In this document: piece after piece, positions 4,597-25,252 of the stretch | How the letters are laid out: every line of letters begins with the position of its first letter | Position numbering within the stretch: the first letter of the stretch is position 1 | NCBI GenBank assembly: GCA_021838635.1 | Contig: JAKCDC010000007.1 | Coordinates: 35,968 to 99,967, forward strand | Direction of reading: 5' to 3' | Length of the DNA: 64,000 nt | Origin: Pseudomonadota bacterium | GTDB taxonomy: Bacteria > Pseudomonadota > Gammaproteobacteria > Steroidobacterales > Steroidobacteraceae | The notes under the pieces: generated by a model | What the model was told of the DNA's origin: nothing | The model's input: only the letters and a program-made list of their open reading frames with translations | Databases searched by the model: none | Made by a program: the position numbers and the translations under genes

Positions 4597-6543
4597 ATGG
4601 CGAGTCGCAATCGGTTCCGCGGGGCGCGGTGGGCGCGAATCCCGCTTGCGCTGCTGTTGCCGCTTGCCGTCGTCGCGCATGCCGGGGTCGCACTGACGCT
4701 CCACGGCGTACAGGGCAAGCTGCGCGCCAACGTGCTCGCGTACCTCAGCTTCGAGCGCTACAAGGACAGCAAGCACCTCGACGGCGAGATCATCGTGCGG
4801 CTCGAGAACCGGGTGCAGAGCGAGGTGGACTCGGCGCTCGAGCCGTATGGGTACTTCCAGCCCGCCGTCCATATGACCGTCCGGCGCACCCGCCCGGATC
4901 ACTGGCGTGTGGCCCTGCAGATCGATCCCGGCCCGCCGGTGCTGCTGCAGGTGGTGGACGTGAAAGTGACCGGAGCGGGCGCGACCGATCCGCGCTTCAC
5001 TCGCATCACCGAGCACGTGCCGCTGCAGCACGGGCAGCGCTTGGACGAGGCGGCCTACGAGCGTCTCAAGGGCGAGCTGCTGCAAACGGCCGCGACCTAC
5101 GGGTACCTCGATGCGCGCCTCACCCGCCACCAGATCCAAGTCGATCCCGGTACGCACAGTGCCAGTGTCTTTCTCACGCTCGCCACGGGGGTGCGCTATC
5201 GATTCGGTCCGACGCAGATCGAGCAGCACGCGCTCACCGACGCGCTGGTCCGGCGCTACCTGCGCTATCGGCACGGGCAACCGTTCGACCTGACGCAGTT
5301 GCTGCGCACCCAATTCGTACTCGATGACACCGGCTACTTCTCCGATCTGGAGGTGGTGCCCGGCACGCCCGACAAAGCCCGGCACATCGTGCCGGTGCAT
5401 ATCCGCGCCAATTCTAGCCGGCGCAACGTCTATTCCTTCGCCGCCGGCTACGCCACCGACACCGGCGCCCGCGGCATCGTCAGCTGGCAGGATCGGCGAG
5501 TGAATCGCGAGGGCGACCGCATGAGCGTCGATCTGGAGGCGGCGCAGCTGACCAAGTACAGCCTGCAGAGCCGCTACATCATCCCGATCGGCGACCCTGC
5601 CACCGAGAATCTGACTTTCATCGCAAGTGTTGAGCAGCGTCAGCTTGCGGCGGTGGATTCGCGCACCATAACGTTCGGGGCGCACCTCACGCGGGTCACG
5701 GGCCGCTGGCAGACCGTGTGGTTCCTCGATGCCATACACGCCACCGGATCGGTCACCGGCGCGATCTGCCCCGGGGGTCTGCTTAATACGGCGGGGACTC
5801 AGTGCGAGTTCCCTGGGGCGAGCGTAGCGGCGCCGAGCGCCGTTGCCAGCGTGGTGGGTAACATGCTCGTGCCGGGCGTCGAAATCACCTCGGTGCCGAG
5901 CGGTTATTTCGGCGAACCGATCTTCGAGCATGGAGTGTCGATCGAGCTGCGCGGCTCGCATGGCGCGCTCGGCTCGCGGGCGGATTTTCTGCAGCTGCGC
6001 GTGCAGCTCGAGCGGGTATTTAACTTCGCTCCGGGCTGGCATTTGCTGTTGCGCGATGAGTTCGGCGCGACAGCGGCGTCGCATTTCGACAATGTGCCGC
6101 CGGTGCTGCGCTTCTTCGCCGGCGGCGAGGGCAGCGTACGCGGTTTTGAGTACAACTCGCTCTCCCCGACCCAGATCTTCTACGCGACGGGCGCCTACCA
6201 GCTGAACAACGTCACCTACACCTGCTACAGCGGTGCGGCCGCTCCGCAGAATGTGCCGAACCCACGGCTGTGTCCGCTGCAGCCTGTGCAGGCGGGCGGT
6301 AAGGACCTGATCAGCGGCTCAGTGGAGATCGACCGCGATCTGCCGCACAACTTCGGCGTCGCGGCGTTCTTCGACTATGGCAACGTGTTCAACAGCTTCC
6401 ATATTCCGCACCTGCTGCAGTACGGTGCTGGCGTCGGTTTTCGCGTGCGCCTGCCGGTGATGACGCTCGGCATCGACGTCGGTGAGCCGCTGTCCGCTCC
6501 GGGCAGCCCACGTCTGTACATCAACTTCTCGCCACGGCTATGA
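4597..6543 (+). CDS. tamA: Translocation and assembly module outer-membrane subunit TamA (Omp85 family)
   Basis: Signal peptide, POTRA-like repeats, and a C-terminal surface-antigen barrel (RFFAGGEGSVRGFEYNSL...) ending in an aromatic-rich strand. Followed directly by tamB. Confidence 0.85.
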   Translation: MASRNRFRGARWARIPLALLLPLAVVAHAGVALTLHGVQGKLRANVLAYLSFERYKDSKHLDGEIIVRLENRVQSEVDSALEPYGYFQPAVHMTVRRTRPDHWRVALQIDPGPPVLLQVVDVKVTGAGATDPRFTRITEHVPLQHGQRLDEAAYERLKGELLQTAATYGYLDARLTRHQIQVDPGTHSASVFLTLATGVRYRFGPTQIEQHALTDALVRRYLRYRHGQPFDLTQLLRTQFVLDDTGYFSDLEVVPGTPDKARHIVPVHIRANSSRRNVYSFAAGYATDTGARGIVSWQDRRVNREGDRMSVDLEAAQLTKYSLQSRYIIPIGDPATENLTFIASVEQRQLAAVDSRTITFGAHLTRVTGRWQTVWFLDAIHATGSVTGAICPGGLLNTAGTQCEFPGASVAAPSAVASVVGNMLVPGVEITSVPSGYFGEPIFEHGVSIELRGSHGALGSRADFLQLRVQLERVFNFAPGWHLLLRDEFGATAASHFDNVPPVLRFFAGGEGSVRGFEYNSLSPTQIFYATGAYQLNNVTYTCYSGAAAPQNVPNPRLCPLQPVQAGGKDLISGSVEIDRDLPHNFGVAAFFDYGNVFNSFHIPHLLQYGAGVGFRVRLPVMTLGIDVGEPLSAPGSPRLYINFSPRL

Positions 6544-6556
6544 GGGACGTTGAACG

Positions 6557-9500
6557 ATGCGTCGAGTTCTGACCTGGGTCGGAGCGCTGATCGGGCTGGC
6601 CGCGTTGCTGCTCGCCGCGACAGCCTACGCCGTGTTCTACACCCAGGGTGGTCTGCGTTTCGTGGTGGCGCACCTGCCGTCGCGCTTTGGCACCGCAGAG
6701 GTGCGTATCGAGCAGGTAAGTGGCACGCTCGCGACGGGCGTGCACGCCGAGCGGGTGCTCATCAATCAACGGCACGTCTATCTGCGGTTCGATGATGTGT
6801 ATACGCGGGTGCATCTCTCGGCGCTTTCCTGGCGCACCCTGGTCAGCCCGCAGACACGCATCGGCGCGGCGTACATCCGGGTCAAAGCGGTACGGCCGCT
6901 GCCGGTCGTGCACCCTAAGTTTCTGCCCTGGGGCCTGAAAATCCGCGTGACGCACGCGCAGGTCGGCGCCGTGCAGCTGATCTTGGAGAACGGCCGACAC
7001 CTCGAAGGCACGGGGTTGCGTGGTGCGGTGCAGATCGGCTATCGGGATCTGCACGTGACGGGATTCGCGCTGCGCATGGGGCAGGCCAGGTACCGGCTCG
7101 CCGCGGCGCTGCGGGCGGCCCGGCCGTTGCAGCTCACCGTGGGCGGCACGTTTACGTGGCGCCCGCCGCGCCAGCCGCCTTGGCAAGGTCGCCTGGCGTT
7201 GCACGGGAACATTGCGGTCATGACGATCCAGGCGCACCTCAGCGCGCCATTTTCCGCGGCGCTGCACGGGACGCTGCGCGAGCAGCACGGTCGCTGGAGC
7301 ACGCAGAGCGAACTCGGTATCCGTGGACTCGACCTGCGCGCCTGGCACCGGACCGGACGCTTCGGGCGCATCCGCGCGCAGCTCGCGCTCACCGGCGGTG
7401 TGCACGGCTTTCGCCTCGGCGGGACTGTCAATCCGCGGGGGCTGCGTGCCGGCACCTTTCACGTGCAGCTCGATGGCCGCTACCGCGCCGGTGTGCTCAG
7501 CGCCCGCCGCTTCGTGCTGGCCCATCCGGCCAGCGGCACGGTGCTCAGCGGCGCCGGTCACGTGCACTTCGGGGACGGGCGGCCGGATCTGCAGCTGCAG
7601 GGTACCTGGCAACGGCTGCGCTGGCCGCTGAACACCGCAGCGCGCGTGCATAGCCCGCGGGGCACCTTTACCCTCACGGGTCGCCTGCCCTACGCGCTCG
7701 CCGCACGCGGCCTCGCGCAGGTGGGTACCGCGGCGCCGGTGCCAGTGACGCTCGGGGCGTCCCTGACCACGAGTGGGCTGGCCATCGAACATGCCACGCT
7801 GCACATGCTCGGCGGACGAATCGAGGCGCGCGGCATGTTCGGCTGGGTGCCCCTGAAACGCTGGAGCCTGCACCTCATCGGCATCGGCATCGATCCGGCT
7901 CAGCTGCGCTCAGCGCTGCGCGGTCGGCTCAGCTTTGCGCTCAGCGCCACTGGCGAAGGCTTCGGTGCCGCTGCGCCGCTGCACGTGCGGCTTGAGCGGT
8001 TGAGTGGACAGGTGCGCGGTCAGCCCGCGAGCGGCAGCGGCGCCGTGAGTCGCGATCACGGCGTGTGGACCTTCCAGCGGTTGCGCCTGGATCTGGGCCG
8101 CACACACCTTGCCGCGGCCGGTCGACTGGCGCGGCACATGCATCTGCGCTTTGCACTGCGGGGGGATCTGCGTCTGATCTCGAGGGGCGATCGCGGCACC
8201 CTCACGGCGCGTGGATCGATCGACGGGTCACGCCGTGCGCCACGCGTGAACGCGTGGCTCGAGGGTTCAGATCTGCACATCGGCGCCAACTCGCTGGCCG
8301 CTCTGCGGGCGCGCATCGACTTCGATCCGCGCCCGCAGCACCGCTCGCAGATCCGTGTGCAGTTGCGCGAGCTGCGCTCACGGTATCACCTGTTGCGCAG
8401 TCTCCAGTTCGATCTGCACGGACCGGCTGCGGCCCTGCGAGCGACGCTCGAGGTCAATGCCCCAGGACTGCACGCTGCGGCGCTGGCCTCGGGCAGTTTC
8501 GCGCAGGGTGTTTTCGCCGGTGAGGTCACCTCATTCAACGTCAACGGGCCGCAGTCGCTGCACCTGCAGCTGCGTGCCCCGGCGCAGCTGACGCTCTCAC
8601 GGGTGCGCCGCGCGCTCGGGGCGCTATGTCTGGATGGCACGCCGGGTGCTCTGTGCACCGGCGCGACTTGGACCCCGGGGGGGTGGTCGGCATACGTGAG
8701 TGCCAGCAAGCTGCCGCTGGCGACACTCACGGCCGGCATGACGCCTGCGGTCGAATATCAAGGCACGCTCGGCGCATCGCTCGAACTCACCGGCAGCGCC
8801 GGGTCGCCCGTACAGGGCACGCTGCGTATGACGCTGTCGAACGGAGTGCTCTCGCGCAGACTCGTCAGCGGTACGGTCGAACACACGAGCATCGGCTCCG
8901 GGCTGCTCACGGCGATTGCCGGACCGCGGACGATCCATGCGCGGGCTTCTCTGACCGCCGGCGCCATCGGCACCTTCCAGGCCGTGCTCAATATCCGCCG
9001 CGGTGCGGCCGATTGGCGCGCGCTGCCGCTCACCGGCAGCCTGCAGGCGCGCACCGCCCGTTTGAATCTGGTCTCGCTGTACCTGCCGGGCGTCGACGCC
9101 GTCTCCGGGGTGCTGCTCGCACACGCCACGGTCGGCGGGACGATCGCGGATCCTCGCCTGCACGGCGCGGTGAAGATCGTCGATGCATCGGCCGACCTGT
9201 ATCGCACCAATCTGCAAATGCACCGTCTGTCCCTCACCGCGCAACTGGTGCAGAGCGGTCTGACCTTCGTCGGTTCGGCGCAGGTCGGCAAGGGCACGCT
9301 GCAGGCCACCGGCACGATGGGCTGGCGCGGGGCAGCTGCCCGCGGCGAGGTGCACCTGCGCGGCACCGATTTGCGCGTGGTGGACCTGCCCGAGGCGCGC
9401 ATCGACGCCTCCCCGCAGCTTGATTTCCGCCTGATCGGCCACCGCATCGACGCCACCGGCAAGGTGCTCATCACACACGCACGCATCGCGCCGCGCAATT

Positions 9501-10321
9501 TCCGCGGTGCGGTGCGCACCTCGTCCGATCAGGTGATCGTGGGCGCAGAGTCCTCCAGCGTTGCGCACCGTTACCACGTGGTGAGCGTGATCACGTTCGA
9601 CCTCGGCAACGATGTCGACATCCAGACCATGGGGCTGACCGGCCAACTGAGTGGACAGATCACTGTGCGCAGCGGGCTTGGCCAGGGCACGACTGCCACG
9701 GGCGAGCTGTTCGTGCGCAAAGGGCAATATTCTGCCTACGCGCGCCGCCTGGCGATTCAGACGGGCCGGCTGTTCTTCCGCGGCGGTCCACTCGACAACC
9801 CTGGCATCGAGATCCGCGCCGTGCGTCGCTACCCCGACGTGACCGCAGGCATCAACGTCAGCGGCACGCTGAAGCAGCCGCAAGTGTCCTTTTTCTCCAA
9901 TCCGCCGCTCTCGCAGTCGCAGATCATGTCGCTCATCCTTTCCGGCGGCGGCGGCTCGCTGCAGGCGCTGCAGACAACCACTGGGGTGCAAAGCCGCCAG
10001 AGCACCGCCGCCAACGAGCTGCTGGCGCAGGGCGGGGCGATCTTGGCGCAGCAACTCGGCTCGCGCATCGGTCTGCCGGACGTCAGCCTGCAGACTGACA
10101 TGAATAATCAGACTTCGATCGTGCTGGGCAAATACCTCTCGCCACGCCTGTACGTCAGCTACGGCGTGGGGTTGACCGAGCAGCTGAGCGCCGTGCGCCT
10201 GCGCTACAGCATCGGCAGGCACTGGACGATCCGGCTCGAGGCCGGGCAGGGCAAGCTCGTCGGGCAGACCAAGAGCGGCGAACTTGGCGGCGCGGACCTG
10301 GTGTTTACCGTGACCAAATGA
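6557..10321 (+). CDS. tamB: Translocation and assembly module inner-membrane subunit TamB (DUF490)
   Basis: 1254 aa with an N-terminal TM anchor and a long beta-rich repeat body. The C-terminal DUF490-like end reads GKYLSPRLYVSYGVGL...RLRYSI. Confidence 0.85.
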   Translation: MRRVLTWVGALIGLAALLLAATAYAVFYTQGGLRFVVAHLPSRFGTAEVRIEQVSGTLATGVHAERVLINQRHVYLRFDDVYTRVHLSALSWRTLVSPQTRIGAAYIRVKAVRPLPVVHPKFLPWGLKIRVTHAQVGAVQLILENGRHLEGTGLRGAVQIGYRDLHVTGFALRMGQARYRLAAALRAARPLQLTVGGTFTWRPPRQPPWQGRLALHGNIAVMTIQAHLSAPFSAALHGTLREQHGRWSTQSELGIRGLDLRAWHRTGRFGRIRAQLALTGGVHGFRLGGTVNPRGLRAGTFHVQLDGRYRAGVLSARRFVLAHPASGTVLSGAGHVHFGDGRPDLQLQGTWQRLRWPLNTAARVHSPRGTFTLTGRLPYALAARGLAQVGTAAPVPVTLGASLTTSGLAIEHATLHMLGGRIEARGMFGWVPLKRWSLHLIGIGIDPAQLRSALRGRLSFALSATGEGFGAAAPLHVRLERLSGQVRGQPASGSGAVSRDHGVWTFQRLRLDLGRTHLAAAGRLARHMHLRFALRGDLRLISRGDRGTLTARGSIDGSRRAPRVNAWLEGSDLHIGANSLAALRARIDFDPRPQHRSQIRVQLRELRSRYHLLRSLQFDLHGPAAALRATLEVNAPGLHAAALASGSFAQGVFAGEVTSFNVNGPQSLHLQLRAPAQLTLSRVRRALGALCLDGTPGALCTGATWTPGGWSAYVSASKLPLATLTAGMTPAVEYQGTLGASLELTGSAGSPVQGTLRMTLSNGVLSRRLVSGTVEHTSIGSGLLTAIAGPRTIHARASLTAGAIGTFQAVLNIRRGAADWRALPLTGSLQARTARLNLVSLYLPGVDAVSGVLLAHATVGGTIADPRLHGAVKIVDASADLYRTNLQMHRLSLTAQLVQSGLTFVGSAQVGKGTLQATGTMGWRGAAARGEVHLRGTDLRVVDLPEARIDASPQLDFRLIGHRIDATGKVLITHARIAPRNFRGAVRTSSDQVIVGAESSSVAHRYHVVSVITFDLGNDVDIQTMGLTGQLSGQITVRSGLGQGTTATGELFVRKGQYSAYARRLAIQTGRLFFRGGPLDNPGIEIRAVRRYPDVTAGINVSGTLKQPQVSFFSNPPLSQSQIMSLILSGGGGSLQALQTTTGVQSRQSTAANELLAQGGAILAQQLGSRIGLPDVSLQTDMNNQTSIVLGKYLSPRLYVSYGVGLTEQLSAVRLRYSIGRHWTIRLEAGQGKLVGQTKSGELGGADLVFTVTK

Positions 10322-10324
10322 GGC

Positions 10325-10352
10325 TTGACGCGCGTGAATTATTATTCATAAT
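10325..10352 (+). promoter_or_regulatory. Sigma-70-like promoter of the arginine operon (TTGACG-N16-CATAAT)
   Basis: ttgacg at 10325-10330 and cataat at 10347-10352, in the only AT-rich patch upstream of argR. Confidence 0.5.
10333..10350 (+). promoter_or_regulatory. ARG box (ArgR operator) overlapping the -10 region
   Basis: cgTGAATtattATTCAta matches the ARG-box consensus TGAAT-wwww-ATTCA perfectly in both half sites (core 10335-10348). Confidence 0.7.
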
Positions 10353-10396
10353 ACGCGCAATTTTATGCACACCGGCCGCCCCCATCCGTAACCGCC

Positions 10397-10843
10397 ATGG
10401 ACGCTCAGCAGCTCGAACGCCGCCAGGCGGTGGTGCGCATTTTGCGCAGCGGGGTGGTGCACCGGCAGGAGGACTTGGTGCGACTGCTGCGCGAAGACGG
10501 CTACGAGGTAACGCAGTCCTCCATCAGCCGCGACCTGCGCGACCTCGGCGTGCTCAAGGCGAGCGGCCGCTACGTGCTGCCGCCGGACGAGGTCTCGCGC
10601 ACCCACGGTGATTTCGCGATGCTCGCGCAGTTCGTGCGCGGGCTGAAGCGGGCCGGCGCCTCGCTCACGGTGCTGCGCACGACCATCGGCGCCGCCCCGA
10701 GCGTCGCCGTCGCGATCGATCGGGCCGAGTGGCCCGAGGTGGCCGGCACCCTCTCCGGAGACGACACGATTTTCATCGCCACCGCCGATGGCCGTGCGCA
10801 GGATCAGCTGATCGCGCGGCTGCAGGCGCTATTTCGGATCTGA
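10397..10843 (+). CDS. argR: Arginine repressor ArgR
   Basis: The winged-helix N-domain reads RQAVVRILRSGVVHRQEDLVRLLREDGYEVTQSSISRDLRDLG. The C-terminal oligomerisation domain has GDDTIF. Confidence 0.9.
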   Translation: MDAQQLERRQAVVRILRSGVVHRQEDLVRLLREDGYEVTQSSISRDLRDLGVLKASGRYVLPPDEVSRTHGDFAMLAQFVRGLKRAGASLTVLRTTIGAAPSVAVAIDRAEWPEVAGTLSGDDTIFIATADGRAQDQLIARLQALFRI

Positions 10844-10847
10844 ACGT

Positions 10848-12092
10848 ATGCCTACAGCCTCGACTCCGGGCGCCGAGCCCATCGTTCTCGCCTATTCCGG
10901 CGGCCTCGACACCTCCTTCCTGGTGCCCTGGCTGAAGGAGACTTACCGCCGGCCCATCATCACCGTCACCGTCGACACCGGCGGTATCGACGCTGAGGCG
11001 GCGCGCATGCTCGCCGAGCGCGCCCGGGCGCTTGGCGCCATCGAGCATCATCAGGTCGATGCGCGCGAGGCGTACTTCGAGCAGGTGCTGCGTTACCTCA
11101 TCATGGGCAACGTCAAGCGCGGGCAGCTCTATCCGCTGTGCGTCGGCGCCGAGCGGGTCATGCAGGCGCAGACCATCGCGCACATCGCGCGCAAGCTCGG
11201 CACGCGCATGATCGCGCATGGCTGCACCGCCGCCGGCAACGACCAAGTGCGATTCGAAGTCGCCATGCGCACGCTGGCTCCCGACCTGGATGTGCTCGCC
11301 CCGGTGCGCGACCACGCGTTCAAGCGCGCCGAGGAACTCGCGTTTCTCCAGGAGCGCGCCCTGCCGGTGCCTCCCTTCGGAGCGGCCTATTCGATCAACC
11401 GCGGTCTGTGGGGCGTGACCATCGGCGGTCAGGAAACCCTCACCTCGAGCGGCAGTATCCCGGAGGACGCGTGGGTGCTGACCCGTGAGGCGTTCAGCCG
11501 CGCGCGCGCCCCCGAGACCCACACGATCGCCTTCGAGCGCGGCCGCCCGTGCGGCCTCGACGGCCGGACGCTTTCCCCCGTAGCGCTCATCGAGGCGCTC
11601 GAGGCGCTCGCCGCGCCGTTCGGCATCGGCCGCGGAATCCATCTCGGCGACACCATCATCGGCACCAAAGGCCGGGTCGCCTTCGAGGCGCCCGCCGCCG
11701 AAGTTCTGCTGACCGCGCACCGCGAACTGGAGAAGCTGGTGCTCACTGCCCGCCAGCAGCGCATCAAGGAGCTGGTGGCGCAGCCGTACGGTGACTGGGT
11801 TCACGAGGGCCAGCTGCTCGATCCGGTGTGCCGCGACATCGAGGCGCTGCTCGAGTCCTCCCAGGAGCGCGTCAGCGGCGCGGTGCATATTGCGCTGCGC
11901 CCCGGCAATCTGTTCATCGAGGGTGTCGAGTCTGCGTACTCGCTGATGAGCGCCTCGAAGGGCGTCTACGGCGAGGCGGCCGGTGAATGGACACCGCAGG
12001 ATGCGCTCGGGTTCTCCAAGATCGTGGCGCTCACCGGAGTGTTTCACCGCCGCGCCGGGGAGCGCGCCGCGGGCGGTGCGGGAGGTCAATGA
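10848..12092 (+). CDS. argG: Argininosuccinate synthase
   Basis: AYSGGLDTS ATP-binding motif, and 414 aa typical for the family. Confidence 0.95.
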   Translation: MPTASTPGAEPIVLAYSGGLDTSFLVPWLKETYRRPIITVTVDTGGIDAEAARMLAERARALGAIEHHQVDAREAYFEQVLRYLIMGNVKRGQLYPLCVGAERVMQAQTIAHIARKLGTRMIAHGCTAAGNDQVRFEVAMRTLAPDLDVLAPVRDHAFKRAEELAFLQERALPVPPFGAAYSINRGLWGVTIGGQETLTSSGSIPEDAWVLTREAFSRARAPETHTIAFERGRPCGLDGRTLSPVALIEALEALAAPFGIGRGIHLGDTIIGTKGRVAFEAPAAEVLLTAHRELEKLVLTARQQRIKELVAQPYGDWVHEGQLLDPVCRDIEALLESSQERVSGAVHIALRPGNLFIEGVESAYSLMSASKGVYGEAAGEWTPQDALGFSKIVALTGVFHRRAGERAAGGAGGQ

Positions 12093-12093
12093 C

Positions 12094-13170
12094 ATGAGCA
12101 ACGGCATGCGCAGCGTCGTCGTCGACAAGATCGCCTCGGTGGCCCAGGCCTGCGGCCTCTCGCGCGAGGTTCGCATCGCCTCGGACATCCCCGCCGAGGA
12201 GGGTGTGGTGATCGTCGTCGAGGTACTCACCAACAAGTCGACCTACAACACCCTGGAGCTGACCAGCGGCCGCATGGCCAAGGTGCGCAAGGGCGACATC
12301 GTGGTCGGCGCCCTCGGACACCGCAAGGCGCTGTTCGGCTACTCCGGACACATTCCGCCGACGGTCAAGCCGGGCGACGTGATCCAGATGCTCAACATCG
12401 GTGGGGTGCTCGGCGCGTGCGATTCGATCAATCCCGACAAGGGGCAGCCGTTCGACTGTCGCGTGCTCGGGGTGGTGCTGCGCTTTCCCTACCTTGGTGA
12501 GCGCATCGGCGTGCCGGCGCGCGTCGGTATCCGCCCGCTCGATCAGGCTGCCGCGCTCGAGACGCGCGCCGTCCCGGTGGTCGCGCTCGCCGGTACCTGC
12601 ATGGAGGCGGGTAAGACCGCCGCGGCCTGCGCCATGATCAGCCGCATGCGCCACCGCGGTTTGACCGTCGATGCGTTCAAGGCCACCGGCGTCTCGCTGC
12701 GCCGCGACATCATGGCCATGGAAGACGCCGGCGCGCGCCGCTCGGCGATCTTCACCGATTTCGGTGTCGTCACCACCACCCGGAAAAATGGACCGGCGTT
12801 GACCCGCACCATGCTGACGGAACTGTCCGCCGGCCGGCCTGAAGTCATTGTGTTCGAGCTCGGCGATGGCATTCTCGGCACCTACGGCGTGGACGCCATC
12901 CTGGAGTGCCCGGACATCCGCTCCGCGCTCACCGCGGTGGTGCTATCGGCCAACGATCCGGTGGCCGCCTGGGGCGGGGTGAAGCTGTTGCGCGAGCGCT
13001 TCGGGATCGAGCCTTGTGTGGTGACCGGGCCGGCCACCGACAACCAGGTGGGGATCGACCTGATCACCGAGCAGCTGAAGGTGCCGGCGTTCAATGCCAT
13101 CAGCGATGGCGCCTCGCTCGGCGATCATGTGATGAAGGCAGTGGGACTTCCGGCGGGATCGCCGCAGTGA
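12094..13170 (+). CDS. Uncharacterised protein X, 358 aa: N-terminal beta-rich domain plus C-terminal DTBS/CobQ/DUF1611-like P-loop domain
   Basis: Within ORF 11983-13170. ATG 12094 lies 1 nt after the argG stop, behind a gggagg RBS. Its stop overlaps the argC GTG (GTGA). P-loop-like motif ALAGTCMEAGKT (GT-x4-GKT), with a later FELGDGILG. Confidence 0.8.
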   Translation: MSNGMRSVVVDKIASVAQACGLSREVRIASDIPAEEGVVIVVEVLTNKSTYNTLELTSGRMAKVRKGDIVVGALGHRKALFGYSGHIPPTVKPGDVIQMLNIGGVLGACDSINPDKGQPFDCRVLGVVLRFPYLGERIGVPARVGIRPLDQAAALETRAVPVVALAGTCMEAGKTAAACAMISRMRHRGLTVDAFKATGVSLRRDIMAMEDAGARRSAIFTDFGVVTTTRKNGPALTRTMLTELSAGRPEVIVFELGDGILGTYGVDAILECPDIRSALTAVVLSANDPVAAWGGVKLLRERFGIEPCVVTGPATDNQVGIDLITEQLKVPAFNAISDGASLGDHVMKAVGLPAGSPQ

Positions 13171-14228
13171 GCGGAACAATTCCGGCGGTCGTGCTCGGCG
13201 GGACCGGCTACGTGGCTGGGGAACTGCTGCGTCTGCTCGCGGTGCATCCGCGCCTGCGCGTCGCGGCGGTCATGTCCGACAGTCAGCCCGGCGAGCCGCT
13301 CGCATCCGCCTTCCCCCATCTGGCGGCTGCCTATGACGGCATGTGCTTCGAGTCGCAAGAACACGTGCGCTCGTTGTTGACGCGCGAGCCGCTCTGCGCA
13401 CTGTTCTCGGCGGCGCCGCACGGCGTGTCGGCACCGCTGATTGATTCGCTGCTCGGCGCGGCCGCCGTCGCCGGTACCCGACCGCGCGTCGTCGATATTT
13501 CGGCGGATTTCCGCTTCCGCTCGGCCGAGGCTTACGCGCAGGTCTACAAACACCCGCATGGCGCCCCTGGGCGTCTCGGGCAATTCACTTGCGCGGTGCC
13601 GGAGCATCACGCCGAGCTCACCACCGAGCACGTCGCCCATCCGGGCTGCTTCGCCACCGCGGTGCTGTTGGCCAGCGTCCCGCTGCTCACCCTCGGGCTC
13701 GTCCCACCGCAGTTGTTCGTCGCCGGGATCACCGGTAGCACCGGGTCGGGTCGCAAGCCTACGCCGGGCACGCATCATCCGGTTCGTCACAGTGACCTGT
13801 ATGCCTACAGCGCGCTCGCCCACCGGCACGCGCCGGAGATCGCCGCGTGCGCCCGTGCCGCGAGCGGTGTCGCGGCCGAGTTCGCCTTCATTCCGCATTC
13901 GGGGCCGTTTGCCCGCGGCATCCACGTGACGGTGCAGGCGAACCTCGTACGCCCGCTCGACACCGCTGAAGTGTTGGGTGCGTTGCGCGAGTTCTATGCG
14001 CGCTCGCCCTTTGTCCGGGTGCTCGACGGTACTGCGCGCATCAAGGACGTCACGGCGAGCAATTATGCCCATCTGGGTGTTGCGAGCGACGGACGTACGC
14101 TCGCGGTCATGTGTGCCATCGATAACCTGACCAAGGGTGCCGCCGGCGGCGCCGTGCAGTGGATGAACCGGATGTTGGGTCTGCCGGAGACCGAGGGTCT
14201 CACGGCGCCCGCTCCGGGCTGGACCTGA
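13167..14228 (+). CDS. argC: N-acetyl-gamma-glutamyl-phosphate reductase
   Basis: GTG 13167 is in frame in ORF 12906-14228. VVLGGTGYVAGELLRLL Rossmann motif and active-site HPGCFATA. Confidence 0.9.
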   Translation: MSGTIPAVVLGGTGYVAGELLRLLAVHPRLRVAAVMSDSQPGEPLASAFPHLAAAYDGMCFESQEHVRSLLTREPLCALFSAAPHGVSAPLIDSLLGAAAVAGTRPRVVDISADFRFRSAEAYAQVYKHPHGAPGRLGQFTCAVPEHHAELTTEHVAHPGCFATAVLLASVPLLTLGLVPPQLFVAGITGSTGSGRKPTPGTHHPVRHSDLYAYSALAHRHAPEIAACARAASGVAAEFAFIPHSGPFARGIHVTVQANLVRPLDTAEVLGALREFYARSPFVRVLDGTARIKDVTASNYAHLGVASDGRTLAVMCAIDNLTKGAAGGAVQWMNRMLGLPETEGLTAPAPGWT

Positions 14229-14241
14229 AGCGAGGAATTTC

Positions 14242-15414
14242 ATGACCGCATCGCCGCACGCGACCTCCGCCCCCGCACCGCACGAGTCGGCGCTTGCGCC
14301 CGTGTACGCGCAGTATCCGTTCGAGGTGGCTCGCGCCGAGGGTGTCTGGCTCATCGGTCCGCGCGGTGAGCGGGTTCTCGACCTCTACGGCGGGCACGCC
14401 GTGGCGGCGCTCGGCTACGGCCATGCCCGCTGGAGTGAGGCGCTCGCCGAGCAGGCGCGCTCCTGCCAGTTCCAGACCAATGCGCTGCCGATGAGCGTGC
14501 GCGAGCACGCCGCGCAACGCCTGCTCGCGTTCGCCGAGCTGCCGTTCGCGAGCGTCTTCATGGTCAACAGCGGCGCGGAGGCCAATGAGAATGCGCTGCG
14601 CCTCGCGTTGCGCATGAGCGGGCGGGCGCACGTGGTGGCAGTCGAGGGCGCGTTTCACGGCCGCACGGCGGCGGCATCGGCGGTGACATGGGGATCGCAG
14701 AGCTGGTACGGCTTTGCGCGCACGCCCTTCGACGTGAGCTTTCTGCCGCGCGGGGATCTGCAGGCGATCGAGGCGCAGGTGAGCGAGCGCACCGCGGCGG
14801 TGATCGTCGAGCCGGTGCAGGGGCTCGCCGGAGCGGTCGATCTCGGCGCACCGTACCTGGCGGCGCTGCGCGCACGCTGCGATGCGGTGGGCGCGCAGTT
14901 GATTTTCGACGAGGTGCAGTGCGGATTCGGTCGAGTCGGCGTGCCCTACGCGGCCAGCCTCTACGGCGTGATGCCCGACATGCTTACCACCGCCAAGGCG
15001 CTCGGCAACGGGTTCCCGGTCGCGGCTCTGCTGACTTCGGCGCAGGTCTCGGCCACGCTAAAAATCGGTCTGCTCGGCACCACCTACGGAGGAGGGCCGA
15101 TGGCCTGCGCCGCGGTGCTCGCGACGATCGAGGCCATCGAGTCCGAGCGGCTGCTGGAGAACGTACGGCGCGTGTCGGCTTACATCCGGCGCACCTGTCT
15201 CACCGGCCCGGTGAGCGCGGTGCAGGGCGAGGGCTTCCTGCTCGGACTGCGCACCCGCCGGCCCGCCAAGCAGATTCATGCCGAGCTGTTGCGTCGCGGC
15301 ATTCTCACCGGCACCGCGAGCGATCCGGACGTGGTGCGGCTGCTGCCGCCATTCATCTTGCAGGAGGCGCACGTCGATCTGCTCGGCCGGGCCCTTGCGG
15401 AACTCAGCGTATGA
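14242..15414 (+). CDS. argD: Acyl(acetyl/succinyl)ornithine aminotransferase, class-III PLP enzyme
   Basis: NSGAEANE, DEVQCGFGRVG, and the PLP lysine in TTAKALGNGFP. Confidence 0.85.
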   Translation: MTASPHATSAPAPHESALAPVYAQYPFEVARAEGVWLIGPRGERVLDLYGGHAVAALGYGHARWSEALAEQARSCQFQTNALPMSVREHAAQRLLAFAELPFASVFMVNSGAEANENALRLALRMSGRAHVVAVEGAFHGRTAAASAVTWGSQSWYGFARTPFDVSFLPRGDLQAIEAQVSERTAAVIVEPVQGLAGAVDLGAPYLAALRARCDAVGAQLIFDEVQCGFGRVGVPYAASLYGVMPDMLTTAKALGNGFPVAALLTSAQVSATLKIGLLGTTYGGGPMACAAVLATIEAIESERLLENVRRVSAYIRRTCLTGPVSAVQGEGFLLGLRTRRPAKQIHAELLRRGILTGTASDPDVVRLLPPFILQEAHVDLLGRALAELSV

Positions 15415-16412
15415 GACGCCTGCTCGATTTGGCGGATCTGGGCCGCGAGGAGGTACTCGCGCTGCTCGCGTTGGCCGCGCGGCTGCAGCACAAGGCCGAA
15501 CCGCAGGCGCTCGCCGGGAAGATTCTCGGACTGCTGTTTCTGAACCCCTCGCTGCGCACGCTCGCCTCGTTTCAGGCGGGTATGGCGCGCCTTGGCGGCA
15601 GTTCCTTCGTCATCACGCCGGGGCAGGGCACCTGGCAGCTCGAGACGCGCGCCGGGGCGGTGATGGATGGCGCGGCGGCGGAGCATGCGCGCGAAGGCAT
15701 CCCGGTGCTGGCCTCCTATTGCGATGCACTCGGCATCCGGGCATTCGCCTCCGGGCAGGATCTGGCGGCCGATCTGGCCGAGACGACGTTCAACACGCTC
15801 GCGGCCCTTACCGACAAGCCGCTGATCAACCTGGAGTCAGCGGTCAATCACCCCTGCCAGGCGCTGGCCGACTGGAAGACGCTCGATGATCTGGCCGTGG
15901 CGCCCACGGGGCGGTTCGTCCTCTCCTGGGCCTATCATCCGCGGCCGCTGCCGCTGGCGGTGCCCGCCGCGGTGTTGCACATGGCGGCGCTGCGCGGCAT
16001 GGACGTCGTGGTGCTGCGACCCGACGGCTTCGGGCTGCCCGAGCCCATCATGGCCAAGGCGCGCCGCGCCGCGGCGCTCGCCGGCGGATCGGTGCGCGAG
16101 AGCAACGATCGGCGCGAGGCGCTCGCGGGAGCTCAAGTGCTCTACGTGAAGGAATGGGCCGCCACCGCGTGTTACGGCGATGCCGCCGAGGATGCGCGCC
16201 GGCGCGCTGCGCTCACCGACTGGTGTGTGCGCGAGGATTGGTTCGAGACCGCGGCGCCCGAGTGCCGCCTGATGCACTGCCTGCCCGTGCGCCGCAACGT
16301 CGCGATTGCCGACGCAGTGCTCGATGGTCCGCGCAGCATCGTGCAGCACGAGGCGTACAATCGCCTCACGGTCCAGATGGCGGTGTTGTACCGCCTGCTC
16401 AAGGGGCTGTAA
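15411..16412 (+). CDS. argF': N-acyl-L-ornithine carbamoyltransferase (AOTCase/SOTCase family, argF')
   Basis: ATG 15411 overlaps the argD stop (ATGA). The motifs are FLNPSLRT, WQLETRAGAVMDGAAAEH, HPCQ and HCLPVRRNV. The sequence matches the acyl-ornithine branch rather than the classical OTCase branch. Confidence 0.85.
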   Translation: MRRLLDLADLGREEVLALLALAARLQHKAEPQALAGKILGLLFLNPSLRTLASFQAGMARLGGSSFVITPGQGTWQLETRAGAVMDGAAAEHAREGIPVLASYCDALGIRAFASGQDLAADLAETTFNTLAALTDKPLINLESAVNHPCQALADWKTLDDLAVAPTGRFVLSWAYHPRPLPLAVPAAVLHMAALRGMDVVVLRPDGFGLPEPIMAKARRAAALAGGSVRESNDRREALAGAQVLYVKEWAATACYGDAAEDARRRAALTDWCVREDWFETAAPECRLMHCLPVRRNVAIADAVLDGPRSIVQHEAYNRLTVQMAVLYRLLKGL

Positions 16413-16458
16413 CCCAGCCATGTGTTCGTTCGCTTAAGATCAGGGGCTCCTCACCGCA

Positions 16459-17397
16459 ATGATCATGCAACCCGCCGACCAGGCATTGGCCATCCGTGCA
16501 CTGAAAAGCGCCGCACCCTACATCCGCATGTACCGCGGCAAGACCTTCGTGGTGAAGGCCGGCGGTGGCGTATTCGGCGATGACGCATCGACTCGTGTGC
16601 TCATCGAACAGATCGCGATCCTGCATTACTTCGGCGTGCGCGTCGTGTTCGTGCACGGTGGCGGGCCGCAGGTCACCGAGCTGGCGCGCGCCCTCGGCGT
16701 GAACTCGCGCATGGTCGAGGGCCGCCGGGTCACCGACCGGGAAGCGATCGACGTCACCGCCATGGTGCTCAACGGCACGATCAACACCGGTATCCTCGCC
16801 ATCTGCCGGGAACTGAACATTGAGGCGGTCGGCGTGAGCGGCGTCGATGCCGGCCTGATTCGTGCGCACCGCCGAGCGCCGGTGCGTCTGGCGGCGAGCG
16901 GTGAGGTGCTCGACTACGGCTTCGTCGGTGATATCGACGCGGTCGATCCAACCGTGCTCAGCAAATTGCTCGACAACGGCCTGATGCCGGTGGTGAGTCC
17001 GCTCTCGGCCGACGACGAGGGCGTGCTGCTCAACGTCAACGCCGATACGGTGGCCGCGGCGATCGCCGCGGCGCTCGATGCCGAGAAACTGATTCTGTGC
17101 ACCGGCGCGCCGGGCATCCTCGCGAATCTCGAGGACCCCGGCTCGCTCATCTCCTACACGGACCTCGAGGGTCTCGCCCGGTTGCGCGCGCAGGGTGCGA
17201 TCGCCGAGGGAATGCTGCCGAAAGCCACGGCGATCGAGGCGGCGATCCGCGGCGGCGTGCGCCGCGTGCACGTGGTGTCCTACCAGGCGCCCGAAGGTAT
17301 CCTCGGTGAGGTCTTCACCAACGAGGGGACCGGGACGCTGATCGTCGAGGACATCGATGCGCTGACCCCGGCTGAACAAAGCAGCGCAGGGGCGTAG
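16459..17397 (+). CDS. argB: Acetylglutamate kinase
   Basis: FVVKAGGG, VHGGGPQ, and the N-terminal helix extension typical of arginine-sensitive NAGK. Confidence 0.9.
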   Translation: MIMQPADQALAIRALKSAAPYIRMYRGKTFVVKAGGGVFGDDASTRVLIEQIAILHYFGVRVVFVHGGGPQVTELARALGVNSRMVEGRRVTDREAIDVTAMVLNGTINTGILAICRELNIEAVGVSGVDAGLIRAHRRAPVRLAASGEVLDYGFVGDIDAVDPTVLSKLLDNGLMPVVSPLSADDEGVLLNVNADTVAAAIAAALDAEKLILCTGAPGILANLEDPGSLISYTDLEGLARLRAQGAIAEGMLPKATAIEAAIRGGVRRVHVVSYQAPEGILGEVFTNEGTGTLIVEDIDALTPAEQSSAGA

Positions 17398-17399
17398 GC

Positions 17400-18590
17400 A
17401 TGAGCCGGCTGTGGGACAAGGGTGCGCCGCTCGATGAGCGCGTGCTGCGCTACACCGCCGGGGAGGACTACGCGCTCGATGAGCGTCTGGTGGCCTATGA
17501 CGTGCGCGCCTCGATTGCCCACGCCGAGATGCTCGCCGCGCAGGGACTGCTCGCGGCCGAGGATCTGAGCGCGATCCGCGCTGCGCTGACTGCGCTTGCC
17601 GAGGAGCATGCGCAAGGGCTGTGGCACATCGAGCTGGCCGATGAGGATGGTCAGACCGCGCTGGAGCGCCGTCTGACCGAACGCCTCGGGCCGGCCGGCG
17701 GCCGGGTGCACCTCGGGCGCTCGCGCAACGATCAGGTGCTGACCGCGCTCAGGCTCTATCTGCGCGACGCGGTGGAGCGGCTGCACGGCCTCGCCGTCGC
17801 GCTCGCCGAGGGCCTCGAGCGCCTCGGCGCGCGCGAGCCGGCGACCGCACTGCCCGGCTACACGCACATGCAGCAGGCCATGCCGAGCTCGGTGCCATTG
17901 TGGGCCGGCGGGTTCGCCGCCGAGATCCGCGATGACGCCGAGGCGCTGCGCCACGTGCACCGCCGTCTCGCCAAGAGTCCGCTCGGCTCGGCGGCCGGTT
18001 ACGGAACCCCCGGGTTGCCACTCGACCGGGACGCCACGCGGGCCGCGCTCGGCTTCGCACAGGTGCACGAGCCGGTCACGGCCGTGCAGCTCTCGCGCGG
18101 CAAGGCCGAGGCGGAGCTGCTCTTTCACCTCTGCCTGTTGATGCAGGACCTCGGGCGCCTGGCGGCCGACGTGCTGCTCTTTTACACGCAGGAGTTTGCC
18201 TTCGTCGAGCTGTCCGAGGCGTTTACCACCGGCTCCTCGATCATGCCGCAGAAGCGCAACCCGGACGTGTTCGAACTGATCCGCGGTCGCTCTGCCACCG
18301 CCCAGGCCTGCCTCACCGAGGCGCTCGCGATCTGCGCGAAGCTGCCCTCCGGTTACCAGCGCGACCTGCAGTTGTTGAAGTTTCCGCTCTTTCGCGGCAT
18401 CGACATCGCCGCGGAGACGCTCGGCATCCTGCCGGCGGCGCTTGAGACGATGCGGTTCCGGCCGGAGCGGATCCGGCTCGATCCGGCCATCCACGCTGCC
18501 GAGCAGGCCAACCGCCTGGTGGTGAGCGAAGGCATTCCGTTTCGCGAAGCGTACCGGCGGGTCGCGGCCGAACTGAAAGGCTCGCGCTAG
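17400..18590 (+). CDS. argH: Argininosuccinate lyase (short Xanthomonas/Bacteroides-type)
   Basis: Fumarate-lyase signature [12 protein letters not shown], an N-terminus of LWDKG..., and a start 2 nt after argB. Confidence 0.9.
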
Positions 18591-18648
18591 TCCGCGGCGC
18601 AGGGCGCTAGGCTCGCCGGCGCGTGGTATTGCGGGGAGAGGCAAAGCG

Positions 18649-20160
18649 ATGAACGCGGCACAAGACCCGAGCGGTCCGCGCGTCGGTCACTGGATCGGGG
18701 CGGGCGTTCGTGAGGACGGGGAGCGTTTCGCGCCGGTGTTCAATCCGGCCACCGGAGAGGTCCTTCGCCAGGTGCCGCTCGCCGATGCGCGGCTGGTTGA
18801 TGCGGCGGTACAGGCGGCCACAGCGGCGCAGCCCGCCTGGGCCGAGACCCCGCCGGTGCGCCGCGCCCGGGTCCTGAACCGCTTTCTCGCTCTGCTCAAT
18901 ACGCGCCGCGACGCGCTCGCGCAGCGAATCACCGAGGAGCACGGCAAGGTGCTCTCCGATGCTCGCGGCGAGGTGATGCGCGGCATCGAGGTGGTGGAGT
19001 TCGCCTGCGGTATCGCGCAGCTGCTGAAGGGCGAGTACACCGAGCAAGCCGCCACCGGCATCGACACCTGGACGCTGCGCCAGCCGCTCGGTGTGGTGGC
19101 CGGGATCACGCCGTTCAACTTCCCATGCATGGTGCCGTGTTGGATGTTTCCACTGGCGCTTGCGGCTGGCAACGCCTTCGTGCTCAAGCCGAGCGAGCGG
19201 GATCCGTCGGTGGCGTTGCGCATGGCCGAATGGCTCGCCGAGGCGGGTCTGCCCGCGGGGCTCCTCAATGTCGTTCAGGGGGACGGGCAGGCTGCGCAGG
19301 CGCTCATTGAACATCCGGCGGTCCAGGCCGTGAGCTTCGTCGGCTCCACGCCGGTGGCGCGCCAGGTGTACCAGCGCGGCGCGGCGCTCGGTAAGCGCAT
19401 CCAGGCGCTCGGGGGTGCGAAGAACCACCTGGTGGTGCTGCCCGATGCCGACCTCGAGCTCGCCGTCGAGGGGCTGATTGGGGCCGCATTCGGTTCCGCG
19501 GGCGAGCGGTGCATGGCGATCAGCGTCGCGGTCCTCGTCGGGGCGTCGGCCGATGCCGTCCTCGCGCGGCTCGCCGAGCGCACCCGCGCATTGCGGGTCG
19601 GCGCCGGAACGGACGAGGGGATCGACATGGGGCCGGTGATTACCCGCGGTGCGCTCGAGCGTATCCGCGGCGCCATCGATGCGGGCGTGCGCGAGGGTGC
19701 GCAGCTCGTGGTCGACGGCCGCATCGTGCGTGTGCCGGGCCATGAGCGCGGCTTTTTCATCGGCGGTACGCTCTTCGATCGCGTCGAGCCCCACATGAGC
19801 CTCTACCGAGAGGAGATCTTCGGGCCGGTGCTGTGCTGTGTGCGCGCTGCGGATCTCGAGGAAGCGATCGCCCTCATCAACGCGCACCCCTTTGCCAATG
19901 GGGTGGCCTGCTACACGCGCAGCGGCGCCGCGGCGCGCGAGTTCGCCCATCGCATCCAGGTCGGCATGGTCGGTATCAACGTGCCGATTCCGGTGCCCAT
20001 GGCCTGGCACGGCTTTGGCGGCTGGAAGAGCAGCCTGTTCGGCGACACGCATGTCTACGGCCCGGAAGGCGTGCGCTTCTACACCCGCCAGAAGTCGGTC
20101 ATGCAGCGCTGGCCGCGCGCCAGCGGCGGTGCCGAATTCGACCTGCCGTCCTCGAGCTGA
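18649..20160 (+). CDS. mmsA: Methylmalonate-semialdehyde dehydrogenase (CoA-acylating)
   Basis: ALDH family, 503 aa. [13 protein letters not shown], catalytic-Cys region GERCMA, and FANGVACYT are typical of MmsA. Confidence 0.85.
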
Positions 20161-20226
20161 GCGGCCCAGCCGCCAGAGCGCTTGAGGCATAATGGCGCCG
20201 TGACCGCCCAGGTTCGATCCGACAGC

Positions 20227-21312: not shown

Positions 21313-21324
21313 GGCGCCGGGGCC

Positions 21325-22056
21325 GTGCTGCGCGTGCTGATCGTCGATGATGAACCGCCGGCGCGCGCGCGCCTCGGGCAGCTGCTGGCGGAGATCGGCG
21401 AGGTAGAGTTGATCGGCGAGGCGGCGAGCGGGACCGAGGCGCTTGAACAGGCCGTGCGACTGGCCCCGGATGTCGTGCTGCTCGATGTGCGCATGCCCGG
21501 CATGGACGGCATCGAAACCGCACGACACCTGAGCCAACTCGGTGATCCGCCGGCGGTCATTTTCACCACGGCGTACGATCAGTATGCCCTGAACGCCTTT
21601 GAGACCCGCGCCGCAGGCTATCTGCTCAAACCGGTGCGCAAGGACAAACTCGCCGCAGCGCTGGAGCAGGCGGGTCGCCTGACGCGTGCGCAGCTGCAGC
21701 GTCTGGCGGTGGCGGCCGGTTCAGCCGGCCGCACCCACATCGCGGTGCGCCGACGCGAGCAGCTGCGGCTGATTCCGCTCGATCAGATCCTGTTCTTCCA
21801 GGCCGATCAAAAGTACACCACCGTGCGCCACGCCGACGGTGAGGACCTGATCGAGGAGTCGCTGCGCACCCTGGAGGAGGAGCTCGGGGCGCGTTTCGTG
21901 CGTATCCACCGCAATACGCTCATCAACGCCGCACACCTTGAGGGCATCGAGCGCACCGCTGACGGCCGCTACAGCGTGCGCCTGCGCGGCCTCGTTGCGG
22001 TCTTGCCGGTGAGCCGTCGCCTGGCCGGTGAGCTGCTCGATCGCTTCCGGATCTGA
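21325..22056 (+). CDS. LytTR-family response regulator (AlgR-like)
   Basis: Receiver domain (LIVDDEPPAR...DVVLLDVRMPGMDG) plus a LytTR DNA-binding domain (FFQADQKYTTV...RIHRNTLIN). Confidence 0.85.
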   Translation: MLRVLIVDDEPPARARLGQLLAEIGEVELIGEAASGTEALEQAVRLAPDVVLLDVRMPGMDGIETARHLSQLGDPPAVIFTTAYDQYALNAFETRAAGYLLKPVRKDKLAAALEQAGRLTRAQLQRLAVAAGSAGRTHIAVRRREQLRLIPLDQILFFQADQKYTTVRHADGEDLIEESLRTLEEELGARFVRIHRNTLINAAHLEGIERTADGRYSVRLRGLVAVLPVSRRLAGELLDRFRI

Positions 22057-22089
22057 CCGCCGCCCGCGCAGTTGGGGTATCCTCGCGCT

Positions 22090-22920: not shown

Positions 22921-22933
22921 GAGCTCCCATATC

Positions 22934-23644: not shown

Positions 23645-23661
23645 GGCGCCGCGGGGCGCCC

Positions 23662-24615: not shown

Positions 24616-24666
24616 CCGGTCAGCCGGCAGCCGACTCCTCCTCATCCCGGCTAATTCGACCGAGCC

Positions 24667-25227: not shown

Positions 25228-25252
25228 GGCGCGCCCGGAGAGCCCCATCGCC

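Follow-up and report, generated by a model that had tools for sequence, protein, structure and literature searches.

A stretch of 64,000 nucleotides (hereafter the window) from a member of the Steroidobacteraceae (Gammaproteobacteria; GenBank assembly GCA_021838635.1, contig JAKCDC010000007.1, positions 35,968 to 99,967 of the forward strand) contains an arginine biosynthesis operon with the gene order argR-argG-X-argC-argD-argF'-argB-argH, in which the third gene, X, is an open reading frame (ORF) of 358 amino acids whose function is the subject of this analysis. The eight genes are separated, in operon order, by 4 nt (argR/argG), 1 nt (argG/X), -4 nt (X/argC), 13 nt (argC/argD), -4 nt (argD/argF'), 46 nt (argF'/argB) and 2 nt (argB/argH), spacings that an initial annotation, made from the sequence alone, had given exactly, to the single nucleotide. 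The coordinates also bear out its description of the borders of X: the ATG start codon (12094) lies 1 nt past the TGA stop codon of argG (12090-12092), with the ribosome-binding motif GGGAGG (12080-12085) 8 nt ahead of it, and the TGA stop codon of X (13168-13170) overlaps the GTG start codon of argC (13167-13169) as GTGA. X is translationally coupled on both sides and is an integral member of the operon.

All seven flanking arg genes were identified by Pfam and NCBIfam models (Table 1), and the ArgB protein shows no acetyltransferase domain in scans with either collection. The operon contains neither argA nor argJ nor argE, as the initial annotation had noted, and a Pfam scan of the 48 other ORFs in the window recovered no GNAT, ArgJ or M20 protein. 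ArgH is a short form that spans positions 11-386 of the 455 positions of TIGR00838, has no match to ASL_C2 and is matched over its full length by Steroidobacteraceae relatives; elsewhere in X-bearing lineages ArgH has 441-505 amino acids and carries ASL_C2.

The association of X with arginine genes extends well beyond the window. A scan of GTDB genomes returned, as its best 80 loci (L001-L080), only metagenome-assembled genomes (MAGs) of Steroidobacteraceae or unclassified Gammaproteobacteria/Proteobacteria, and wider taxa were reached by searching representatives, by profile searching with distant members and by looking up contigs. The exact gene order of the window, including argF', recurs in 49 of 87 loci, and X is the single non-arg gene of the Steroidobacteraceae cluster. 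A lineage labelled 'Deltaproteobacteria' has argR-X-argC-argD-argF'-argB with a divergent argH-argG pair, two further lineages have X-argC-argD-argB and argR-X-argC-argD-argF'-argB, respectively, and a Planctomycetes MAG has argR-argG-argH-X-argC. Conservation of X homologues beside arg genes in relatives, on which the initial annotation had made its proposal depend, is seen across several phylum labels.

The profile search with distant members reached Patescibacteria (Daviesbacteria, Gottesmanbacteria) and a Woesearchaeota MAG. The woesearchaeal cluster reads argG-X-argC-argD-argF'-argB-M20, in which the M20 protein belongs to the ArgE/DapE family and argH lies off the 9.7-kb contig. Since glutamate N-acylation is the one step on the way to argininosuccinate that has no assigned gene in this cluster and X is the cluster's sole unassigned gene, elimination points to X as the acylation step. 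Three Patescibacteria loci have the arrangement argG-X-argF'-argH-M20, again with an M20 protein of the ArgE/DapE family. The clusters of this group (Microgenomates-type; L088 8752-14668, L089 8552-14656, L092 8772-15146, and L081) have genes for DDAH/ADI-type amidinotransferases, a second M20 protein and argS nearby.

Four contigs, drawn from two or more samples, carry an in-frame fusion of X to ArgB (X::ArgB, 626 amino acids), which ties X to the enzyme that consumes N-acylglutamate. Classical ArgA consists of an amino-acid-kinase domain and a GNAT acetyltransferase domain, a kinase-plus-transferase architecture that the fusion parallels. The fusion gene (L085 9899-11881; L086 5975-7957) is solitary, beside a divergent gene of the arginase family, and its called start seems to be placed ~100 nt too far downstream. 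A second apparent fusion, of X to ArgC (P0169, 687 amino acids), was rejected as an assembly artefact: it lies on a single long-read-style contig (L093 8309-15676), on which argR and argG as well as argF' and argB are 'fused' too, with frameshift or indel errors as the likely source. Some Steroidobacteraceae loci are reduced to X-argC-argB directly after the stop codon of tamB (L015, L021, L040 and L045, with X at 9136, 10001, 10001 and 1016, and L035); these loci show no ARG box, and argR, argG, argD, argF' and argH are absent from them.

The identity of the acyl group can be approached through ArgF'. Three residues separate N-acetylornithine transcarbamylase (AOTCase) from N-succinylornithine transcarbamylase (SOTCase), in which their counterparts are A/S/P/V/Q, P and V/I/E (PMC4581275). 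Compared with Xanthomonas AOTCase structures, the window ArgF' replaces Glu92, Asn185 and Lys302 with Ala, Pro and Ala, respectively, and its best sequence match among Protein Data Bank (PDB) entries is the AOTCase E92A mutant. The 73 ArgF' proteins examined beside X homologues all carry one of A, S, I, V and Q at position 92 together with Pro at 185, and the Glu92/Asn185 pair is absent from them. Because these residues are of the SOTCase type by the published rule, the pathway is probably the succinyl variant, and the acyl group is very probably succinyl rather than acetyl. The N-acylation that the initial annotation had ascribed to X stands as a prediction, with a succinyl group favoured by the ArgF' residues over an acetyl group. 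In the succinyl pathway of Bacteroidetes, the N-succinylglutamate synthase is predicted to be the GNAT protein BT3761, encoded in an argR-led operon, and desuccinylation is ascribed, also by prediction, to the DapE-like M20 protein BT3549.

The gene X is genuine and conserved: it has more than 7,900 matching database proteins, some of them of 358 amino acids and up to 94% identical, and an exhaustive search grouped the family at 50% identity into 1,472 clusters, in which full-length members as distant as ~30% identity occur. Wherever the sources give a match a name, it is 'hypothetical protein', and the nearest named ones come from Steroidobacteraceae/Gammaproteobacteria MAGs. In keeping with the earlier statement that X resembles no canonical arginine enzyme, no Pfam or NCBIfam family scores above threshold: the only Pfam match is to DUF1611_C (PF07755; 16.7 bits against a 25-bit cut-off, residues 159-199 only), and the NCBIfam matches are noise-level hits to CobQ and CobB (E ~0.1-0.2) and to MobB. 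Searches of both collections at E values up to 1 gave no GNAT, amino-acid-kinase or ArgJ Ntn-hydrolase domain, X having a different fold, and no Peptidase_M20 domain was found in either. Over 46 family members the weak Pfam matches are split among CbiA (23), MobB (20), DUF1611_C (18, best E = 1.3e-5) and AAA_26 (4), and the family stays below threshold for PF13500 AAA_26 and PF01656 CbiA, as X does for NCBIfam CobQ, CobB and BioD. Sequence searches of the PDB returned nothing meaningful with the single protein and nothing above threshold with the 46-member profile. In the 46-member alignment, whose members reach down to 29% identity, 17 positions are invariant, namely G37, R77, P88 and G104 in the N-terminal half and G173, K174, T175, K196, G199, D205, G213, A214, G224, E255, G257, D288 and G312 in the C-terminal half.

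An AlphaFold2 model of X computed from this alignment (predicted local distance difference test (pLDDT) 96, predicted template modelling score (pTM) 0.92) comprises an all-beta domain (residues 1-150) followed by an alpha/beta P-loop domain (residues 161-358), which agrees with the beta-rich N-terminus proposed by the initial annotation. The two motifs that it had pointed out in the C-terminal half, ALAGTCMEAGKT (residues 164-175) and ELGDG (residues 255-259), are both present, and its guess of a P-loop fold like that of dethiobiotin synthetase (DTBS), CobQ or DUF1611 is supported by Foldseek and by profile alignment. Foldseek searches of the PDB with the model aligned ~200-290 columns at query template modelling (TM) scores of 0.33-0.42, a region that we take to be the P-loop half; the matches span the SIMIBI class broadly, with the dethiobiotin synthetases 1dts and 3of5 at the top (E = 5e-6), followed by signal recognition particle (SRP) GTPases, HypB and CTP synthase. 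The DUF1611 structures 2obn and 2g0t were matched at E values of 8e-5 to 2e-4 (query TM ~0.4) with partial coverage of X. A Foldseek search with the N-terminal domain modelled alone (pLDDT 92) recovered no PDB entry of related structure, its best hit reaching E = 0.9 and TM scores staying at or below 0.33.

DTBS has a catalytic lysine, Lys37, and metal-binding acidic residues, Asp54 and Glu115. The family profile of X aligns with M. tuberculosis DTBS (3fgn, E = 8e-4) over the P-loop, K196 and D205, and the invariant D205 and E255, which lie where the topology would place Asp54 and Glu115, are candidate counterparts of those two residues. Since the N-terminal domain is an orphan and the weak matches across the family are split among several P-loop families, the model and the sequences set X apart as a distinct two-domain family rather than as a member of DUF1611. 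Neither profile nor structure searches yielded a confident assignment to an unrelated function, such as the initial annotation had said would count against its proposal.

Table 1. Features of the arginine operon and of gene X, with positions in the window
Feature	Position	Strand	Basis or remarks
Sigma-70-like promoter, TTGACG-16 nt-CATAAT	10325..10352	+	Consensus scan, 10/12 matches
Tandem ARG-box-like operator, TGAATTATTATTCA (10335-10348) and CGCAATTTTATGCA (10356-10369)	10335..10369	.	Palindromes, centres 21 nt apart
argR, arginine repressor	10397..10843	+	Pfam Arg_repressor, Arg_repressor_C; TIGR01529
argG, argininosuccinate synthase	10848..12092	+	Pfam Arginosuc_synth, Arginosuc_syn_C; TIGR00032, 287 bits (cut-off 268)
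X, predicted N-succinyl-L-glutamate synthase (non-orthologous ArgA)	12094..13170	+	358 aa
X, N-terminal all-beta domain, ~residues 1-150	12094..12549	+	Model pLDDT 92-96; G37, E55, R77, P88, G104, G126 listed invariant
X, SIMIBI-class P-loop domain, ~residues 161-358	12574..13167	+	Foldseek, profile match to DTBS
X, Walker A / P-loop, G167-T-C-M-E-A-G-K174-T175	12592..12618	+	G173, K174, T175 invariant; aligns with DTBS GTGTGVGKT
X, K196, counterpart of catalytic DTBS Lys37	12679..12681	+	'aaaKl..tG' pairs with 'AVCKPvqTG' (3fgn profile alignment); role inferred
X, E255-L-G257-D-G259, Walker-B-like acid	12856..12870	+	E255, G257 invariant; strand 251-259 in model
argC	13167..14228	+	TIGR01850, 286 bits (cut-off 234)
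argD, N-acylornithine aminotransferase	14242..15414	+	Pfam Aminotran_3; best NCBIfam match TIGR00707
argF', N-acylornithine carbamoyltransferase, N-succinylornithine-type residues A90/Pro/Ala	15411..16412	+	NF003384, 339 bits (cut-off 288)
argB, N-acylglutamate kinase, 312 aa	16459..17397	+	TIGR00761, 214 bits (cut-off 151); Pfam AA_kinase only
argH, argininosuccinate lyase, 396 aa	17400..18590	+	TIGR00838, 303 bits (cut-off 279.5)

Taken together with the gene neighbourhoods, these features point to X as probably being an N-succinyl-L-glutamate synthase, which would supply the absent first step of arginine synthesis by the succinyl route. This idea of its function is not new, since a 2026 preprint on GapMind predicts the same function, from genome comparisons, for ACG33_RS14135 of Steroidobacter denitrificans (UniProt A0A127FCT3), a hypothetical protein in the arg cluster of that organism (bioRxiv 10.1101/2024.10.14.618325); the function of X has thereby been put forward in a published computational prediction, which is also in GapMind. 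According to the same source, S. denitrificans grows in minimal medium without ArgA and without ArgE, homologues of ACG33_RS14135 never share a genome with ArgA homologues, some of them lie near argE candidates, the protein has weak Foldseek similarity to DgcN (PDB 7XRJ), and 90-97% of the ArgF' proteins beside its homologues carry a succinyl-type residue at position 92 (bioRxiv 10.1101/2024.10.14.618325).

X is almost certainly the orthologue of ACG33_RS14135, on the basis of position and taxonomy rather than alignment, because the nearest named homologues of X are from Steroidobacteraceae and X is the sole non-arg gene of the cluster; neither ACG33_RS14135 nor A0A127FCT3 is among the database matches of X that were listed. 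Both are hypothetical proteins encoded amid argR, argG, argC, argD, argF', argB and argH, both have a neighbouring ArgF' with a residue other than Glu at position 92, and both show a remote Foldseek likeness to DUF1611. The present analysis adds to the preprint the domain architecture with its orphan N-terminal domain, the DTBS-like residues, the option of an ATP-dependent ligase, the X::ArgB fusion and the ARG-box operator. The view of X in the initial annotation, as a non-orthologous enzyme for the N-acylation of glutamate, is supported, as a prediction, by gene context, by the fusion, by the elimination in Woesearchaeota and by the independent preprint.

DgcN of the DUF1611 family is cited in that preprint as a D-glutamate N-acetyltransferase (bioRxiv 10.1101/2024.10.14.618325). 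The initial annotation had given the substrate of DgcN as glutamate, which is refined here to D-glutamate. X and the DUF1611 proteins, among them the structural-genomics entries 2OBN and 2G0T, have P-loop domains that fall into one SIMIBI subclass, and DgcN, as so cited, shares with the proposed activity the N-acylation of the glutamate amino group. Unlike a true member of DUF1611, X scores below threshold and matches only ~40 residues around the P-loop, and it has its all-beta domain in place of the N-terminal domain of that family, which we take to be the Rossmann-like Pfam domain PF17396 and which gave no Pfam match in X. DgcN is cited as an acetyl-using enzyme of D-glutamate catabolism, whereas X would act on L-glutamate in biosynthesis, probably with a succinyl group.

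BioD, CobB, CobQ and CTP synthase have in common with X the GTxxxxGKT loop, a lysine after strand 2 (K196 corresponding to Lys37) and the acidic residues that follow. They differ from it in their unrelated substrates, in an identity of only 13-15% and in the sub-threshold score of AAA_26; moreover, X carries an additional N-terminal domain of 150 residues beyond the BioD-type fold, and its use of ATP is hypothetical. ArgA, ArgJ and the GNAT-type proteins BT3761/Cabys_1732 (Bacteroidetes) hold the pathway role proposed for X and have folds unrelated to it.

In the mechanism that we propose, X would succinylate L-glutamate at its alpha-amino group, and the N-succinyl-L-glutamate formed would be carried to N-succinylcitrulline by the ArgB, ArgC, ArgD and ArgF' proteins of the operon. 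The P-loop domain would hold the acyl donor by its nucleotide moiety; on the analogy of DgcN, an enzyme of the DUF1611 family, this donor is most likely succinyl-CoA. The dicarboxylate substrates would lie between the P-loop domain and the beta-rich N-terminal domain, with Arg77 as a candidate carboxylate ligand. K196, D205, E255 and D288 may position and deprotonate the amine and stabilise the transition state; all of these residue roles are inferred. As to the donor, succinyl-CoA is favoured by the precedent of DgcN, and ATP-dependent ligation of free succinate by the slightly closer match to DTBS and by the invariance of the NTPase/DTBS-type catalytic residues K174, T175, K196, D205 and E255.

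To this second route we assign about one third of the total probability of the synthase assignment, which makes it a possible, less likely form of that assignment. X would then be a succinate:L-glutamate ligase of the DTBS/CobQ type that is independent of CoA: free succinate would be phosphorylated, the amino group of glutamate would attack the resulting succinyl phosphate, and the succinate released by desuccinylation would be reused. DTBS, CobB/CobQ and CTP synthase use ATP to activate a carboxyl or carbonyl oxygen for formation of a C-N bond, and it is to the dethiobiotin synthetases, ahead of DUF1611, that the model of X is most similar; the pairing of the P-loop, K196 and D205 with M. tuberculosis DTBS, the invariance of the elements of an NTP-hydrolysing site (K174, T175, D205 and E255) down to ~30% identity, and weak matches to CbiA, CobQ and CobB that are as frequent as those to DUF1611 point the same way. 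Against it, the P-loop residues could equally hold the phosphates of CoA, and DgcN, the sole characterised glutamate acylator of a related fold, is an acetyltransferase as cited in the preprint.

Several observations weigh against the assignment of X as an N-succinyl-L-glutamate synthase by either route. Judged from the models, the structural likeness of X to DgcN is limited to a generic P-loop domain and is weaker than that to DTBS; PDB 7XRJ is not in the 50 best Foldseek matches of X, and neither Pfam nor Foldseek finds the DUF1611 N-terminal domain in it. There is also no recognisable ArgE in Steroidobacteraceae, according to the preprint and to the scan of the window ORFs, so that one gene faces two gaps; the desuccinylase there could possibly be a DapE-type enzyme encoded elsewhere or a second, ArgJ-like activity of X. 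Finally, argB, argC and argD are absent within 10 kb of X in the three Patescibacteria loci, and if those genomes lack argB, argC and argD, the acceptor there cannot be glutamate.

The last point feeds the most serious of the other explanations, which we nevertheless consider unlikely: that X acylates a different acceptor, such as ornithine for a SOTCase-type ArgF', or is an accessory NTPase that acts in regulation, assembly or metal delivery in the manner of HypB, UreG or MobB. In the Patescibacteria, X keeps the company of argG, argF', argH and M20 alone within that distance, and matches of the HypB, MobB and SRP-GTPase type are of similar significance in Foldseek and Pfam. The X::ArgB fusion and the elimination in Woesearchaeota nonetheless point to the first step, the preprint reports the mutual exclusion of X homologues with ArgA, the invariant Arg and Gly-rich motifs of the N-terminal domain are typical of a substrate site, and accessory NTPases are seldom embedded so tightly and universally in a biosynthetic operon. 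The gap left by ArgE raises the less probable alternative of an ArgJ-like trans-succinylase, for which N-succinylcitrulline (or N-succinylornithine) would be the succinyl donor and glutamate the acceptor, perhaps in parallel with de novo synthesis. Such an enzyme would cover the steps of both ArgA and ArgE and would explain how Steroidobacteraceae do without ArgE: both steps are without a gene in the window operon and, according to the preprint, in S. denitrificans. X also lies between argG and argC, touching a late and an early gene, and travels with argF' and argG in Patescibacteria. Several lineages, however, keep an ArgE/DapE-type deacylase in the X cluster, and X is therefore not generally a substitute for hydrolysis; DapE or another M20 protein encoded elsewhere could be the desuccinylase. 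We know of no precedent for a P-loop fold that shuttles acyl groups between amines.

Slightly less probable still is a Xanthomonas-type acetyl pathway in which X makes N-acetylglutamate, as the NCBIfam name of the ArgF' family, 'N-acetylornithine carbamoyltransferase', and the acetyl donor of DgcN (as cited in the preprint) would suggest. The window ArgF', with A, P and A against E92, N185 and K302 and with the E92A mutant as its best PDB match, argues against it, as do the non-acetyl-type residues in every one of the ArgF' proteins checked beside X homologues. We regard as the least probable of all these readings the one in which X replaces ArgE as a deacylase of N-succinylcitrulline (or N-acylcitrulline), which the initial annotation had listed as its less likely option. 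ArgE is indeed absent from the operon and from the scanned window ORFs, and Xanthomonas presumably carries argE in the slot after argG that X occupies here. This option is weakened by the M20 deacylases of the ArgE/DapE family that share single clusters with X in Patescibacteria and Woesearchaeota. In addition, X occurs in a fusion with ArgB and stays together with argB and argC, genes of early steps, the anticorrelation reported in the preprint is with ArgA and not with ArgE, and X has no metal site or fold of the hydrolase type.

The operon also carries a regulatory signature upstream of argR. A consensus scan found a sole promoter-like site in the interval 10200-18800 (Table 1), a call that is a consensus match rather than functional proof, and TTGAC is kept at the corresponding position in relatives. 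Two palindromes that resemble ARG boxes overlap the -10 element of this promoter, and the pattern TGAATWWWWATTCA is matched once in the window, at the operator (chance expectation 0). A tandem TG[CA]ATwwwwAT[GT]CA pair precedes argR in 58 of 70 related loci, with the 21-nt spacing in 56, and such pairs total only 62 in 1.46 Mb of locus DNA. The ARG-box consensus of this lineage is TGCATwwwwATGCA, unlike the TGAATwwwwATTCA of E. coli, and the exact E. coli-type pattern is restricted to the window and its 99%-identical relative. ARG boxes have a known consensus and a 21-bp periodicity, and by both the palindromes form a putative operator bound by ArgR. Given this putative operator upstream of argR, ArgR together with arginine probably represses all eight genes of the operon, X among them.

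If the prediction for X is true, evolution has come up with the committed step of arginine synthesis, the N-acylation of glutamate, on no fewer than four occasions: in ArgA, in ArgJ, in small GNAT enzymes and in the P-loop protein X. Succinyl-based arginine synthesis would then extend beyond Bacteroidetes to Gammaproteobacteria, Planctomycetes, Patescibacteria and DPANN-type archaea, and pathway tools would read correctly the thousands of genomes that they now score as auxotrophic for arginine or as gapped. Independent support for the prediction comes here from the ArgB fusion, from elimination within a cluster, from the ARG-box operator and from the analysis of domains in the model, and the work sharpens the questions of whether succinyl-CoA or ATP plus succinate is used, what the orphan N-terminal domain does and which enzyme is the desuccinylase of Steroidobacteraceae.

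Among the other genes of the window, two large genes directly upstream of the operon (4597-10321) are probably tamA/tamB-like, judged by composition and by a conserved C-terminus, and this pair is linked to the arg operon in ~40 related loci. On the other side, a CoA-acylating methylmalonate-semialdehyde dehydrogenase (18649-20160; TIGR01722, 659 bits) is encoded 59 nt downstream of argH and in its orientation; this aldehyde dehydrogenase was considered as a supplier of acyl-CoA and dropped, since it has its place behind argH in just 1 of 53 loci. The regions 20182-26590 and 50534-63989 form a housekeeping neighbourhood with genes for a LytS-type kinase, a LytTR regulator, dapF, DUF484, xerC, hslV and hslU, polA (31155-33905), an ammonium transporter, ubiE, an ABC1 kinase and a 2-oxoacid:ferredoxin oxidoreductase (52426-55344), and with a trp block (57609-63989). 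This block comprises trpA, a probable trpB whose product has a PALP domain, trpF, trpD and trpE. A second aldehyde dehydrogenase ORF (29976-31139) covers only positions 119-460 of the Pfam model, and either the true start is to be sought upstream of the GTG that was listed, or the gene has lost N-terminal sequence.

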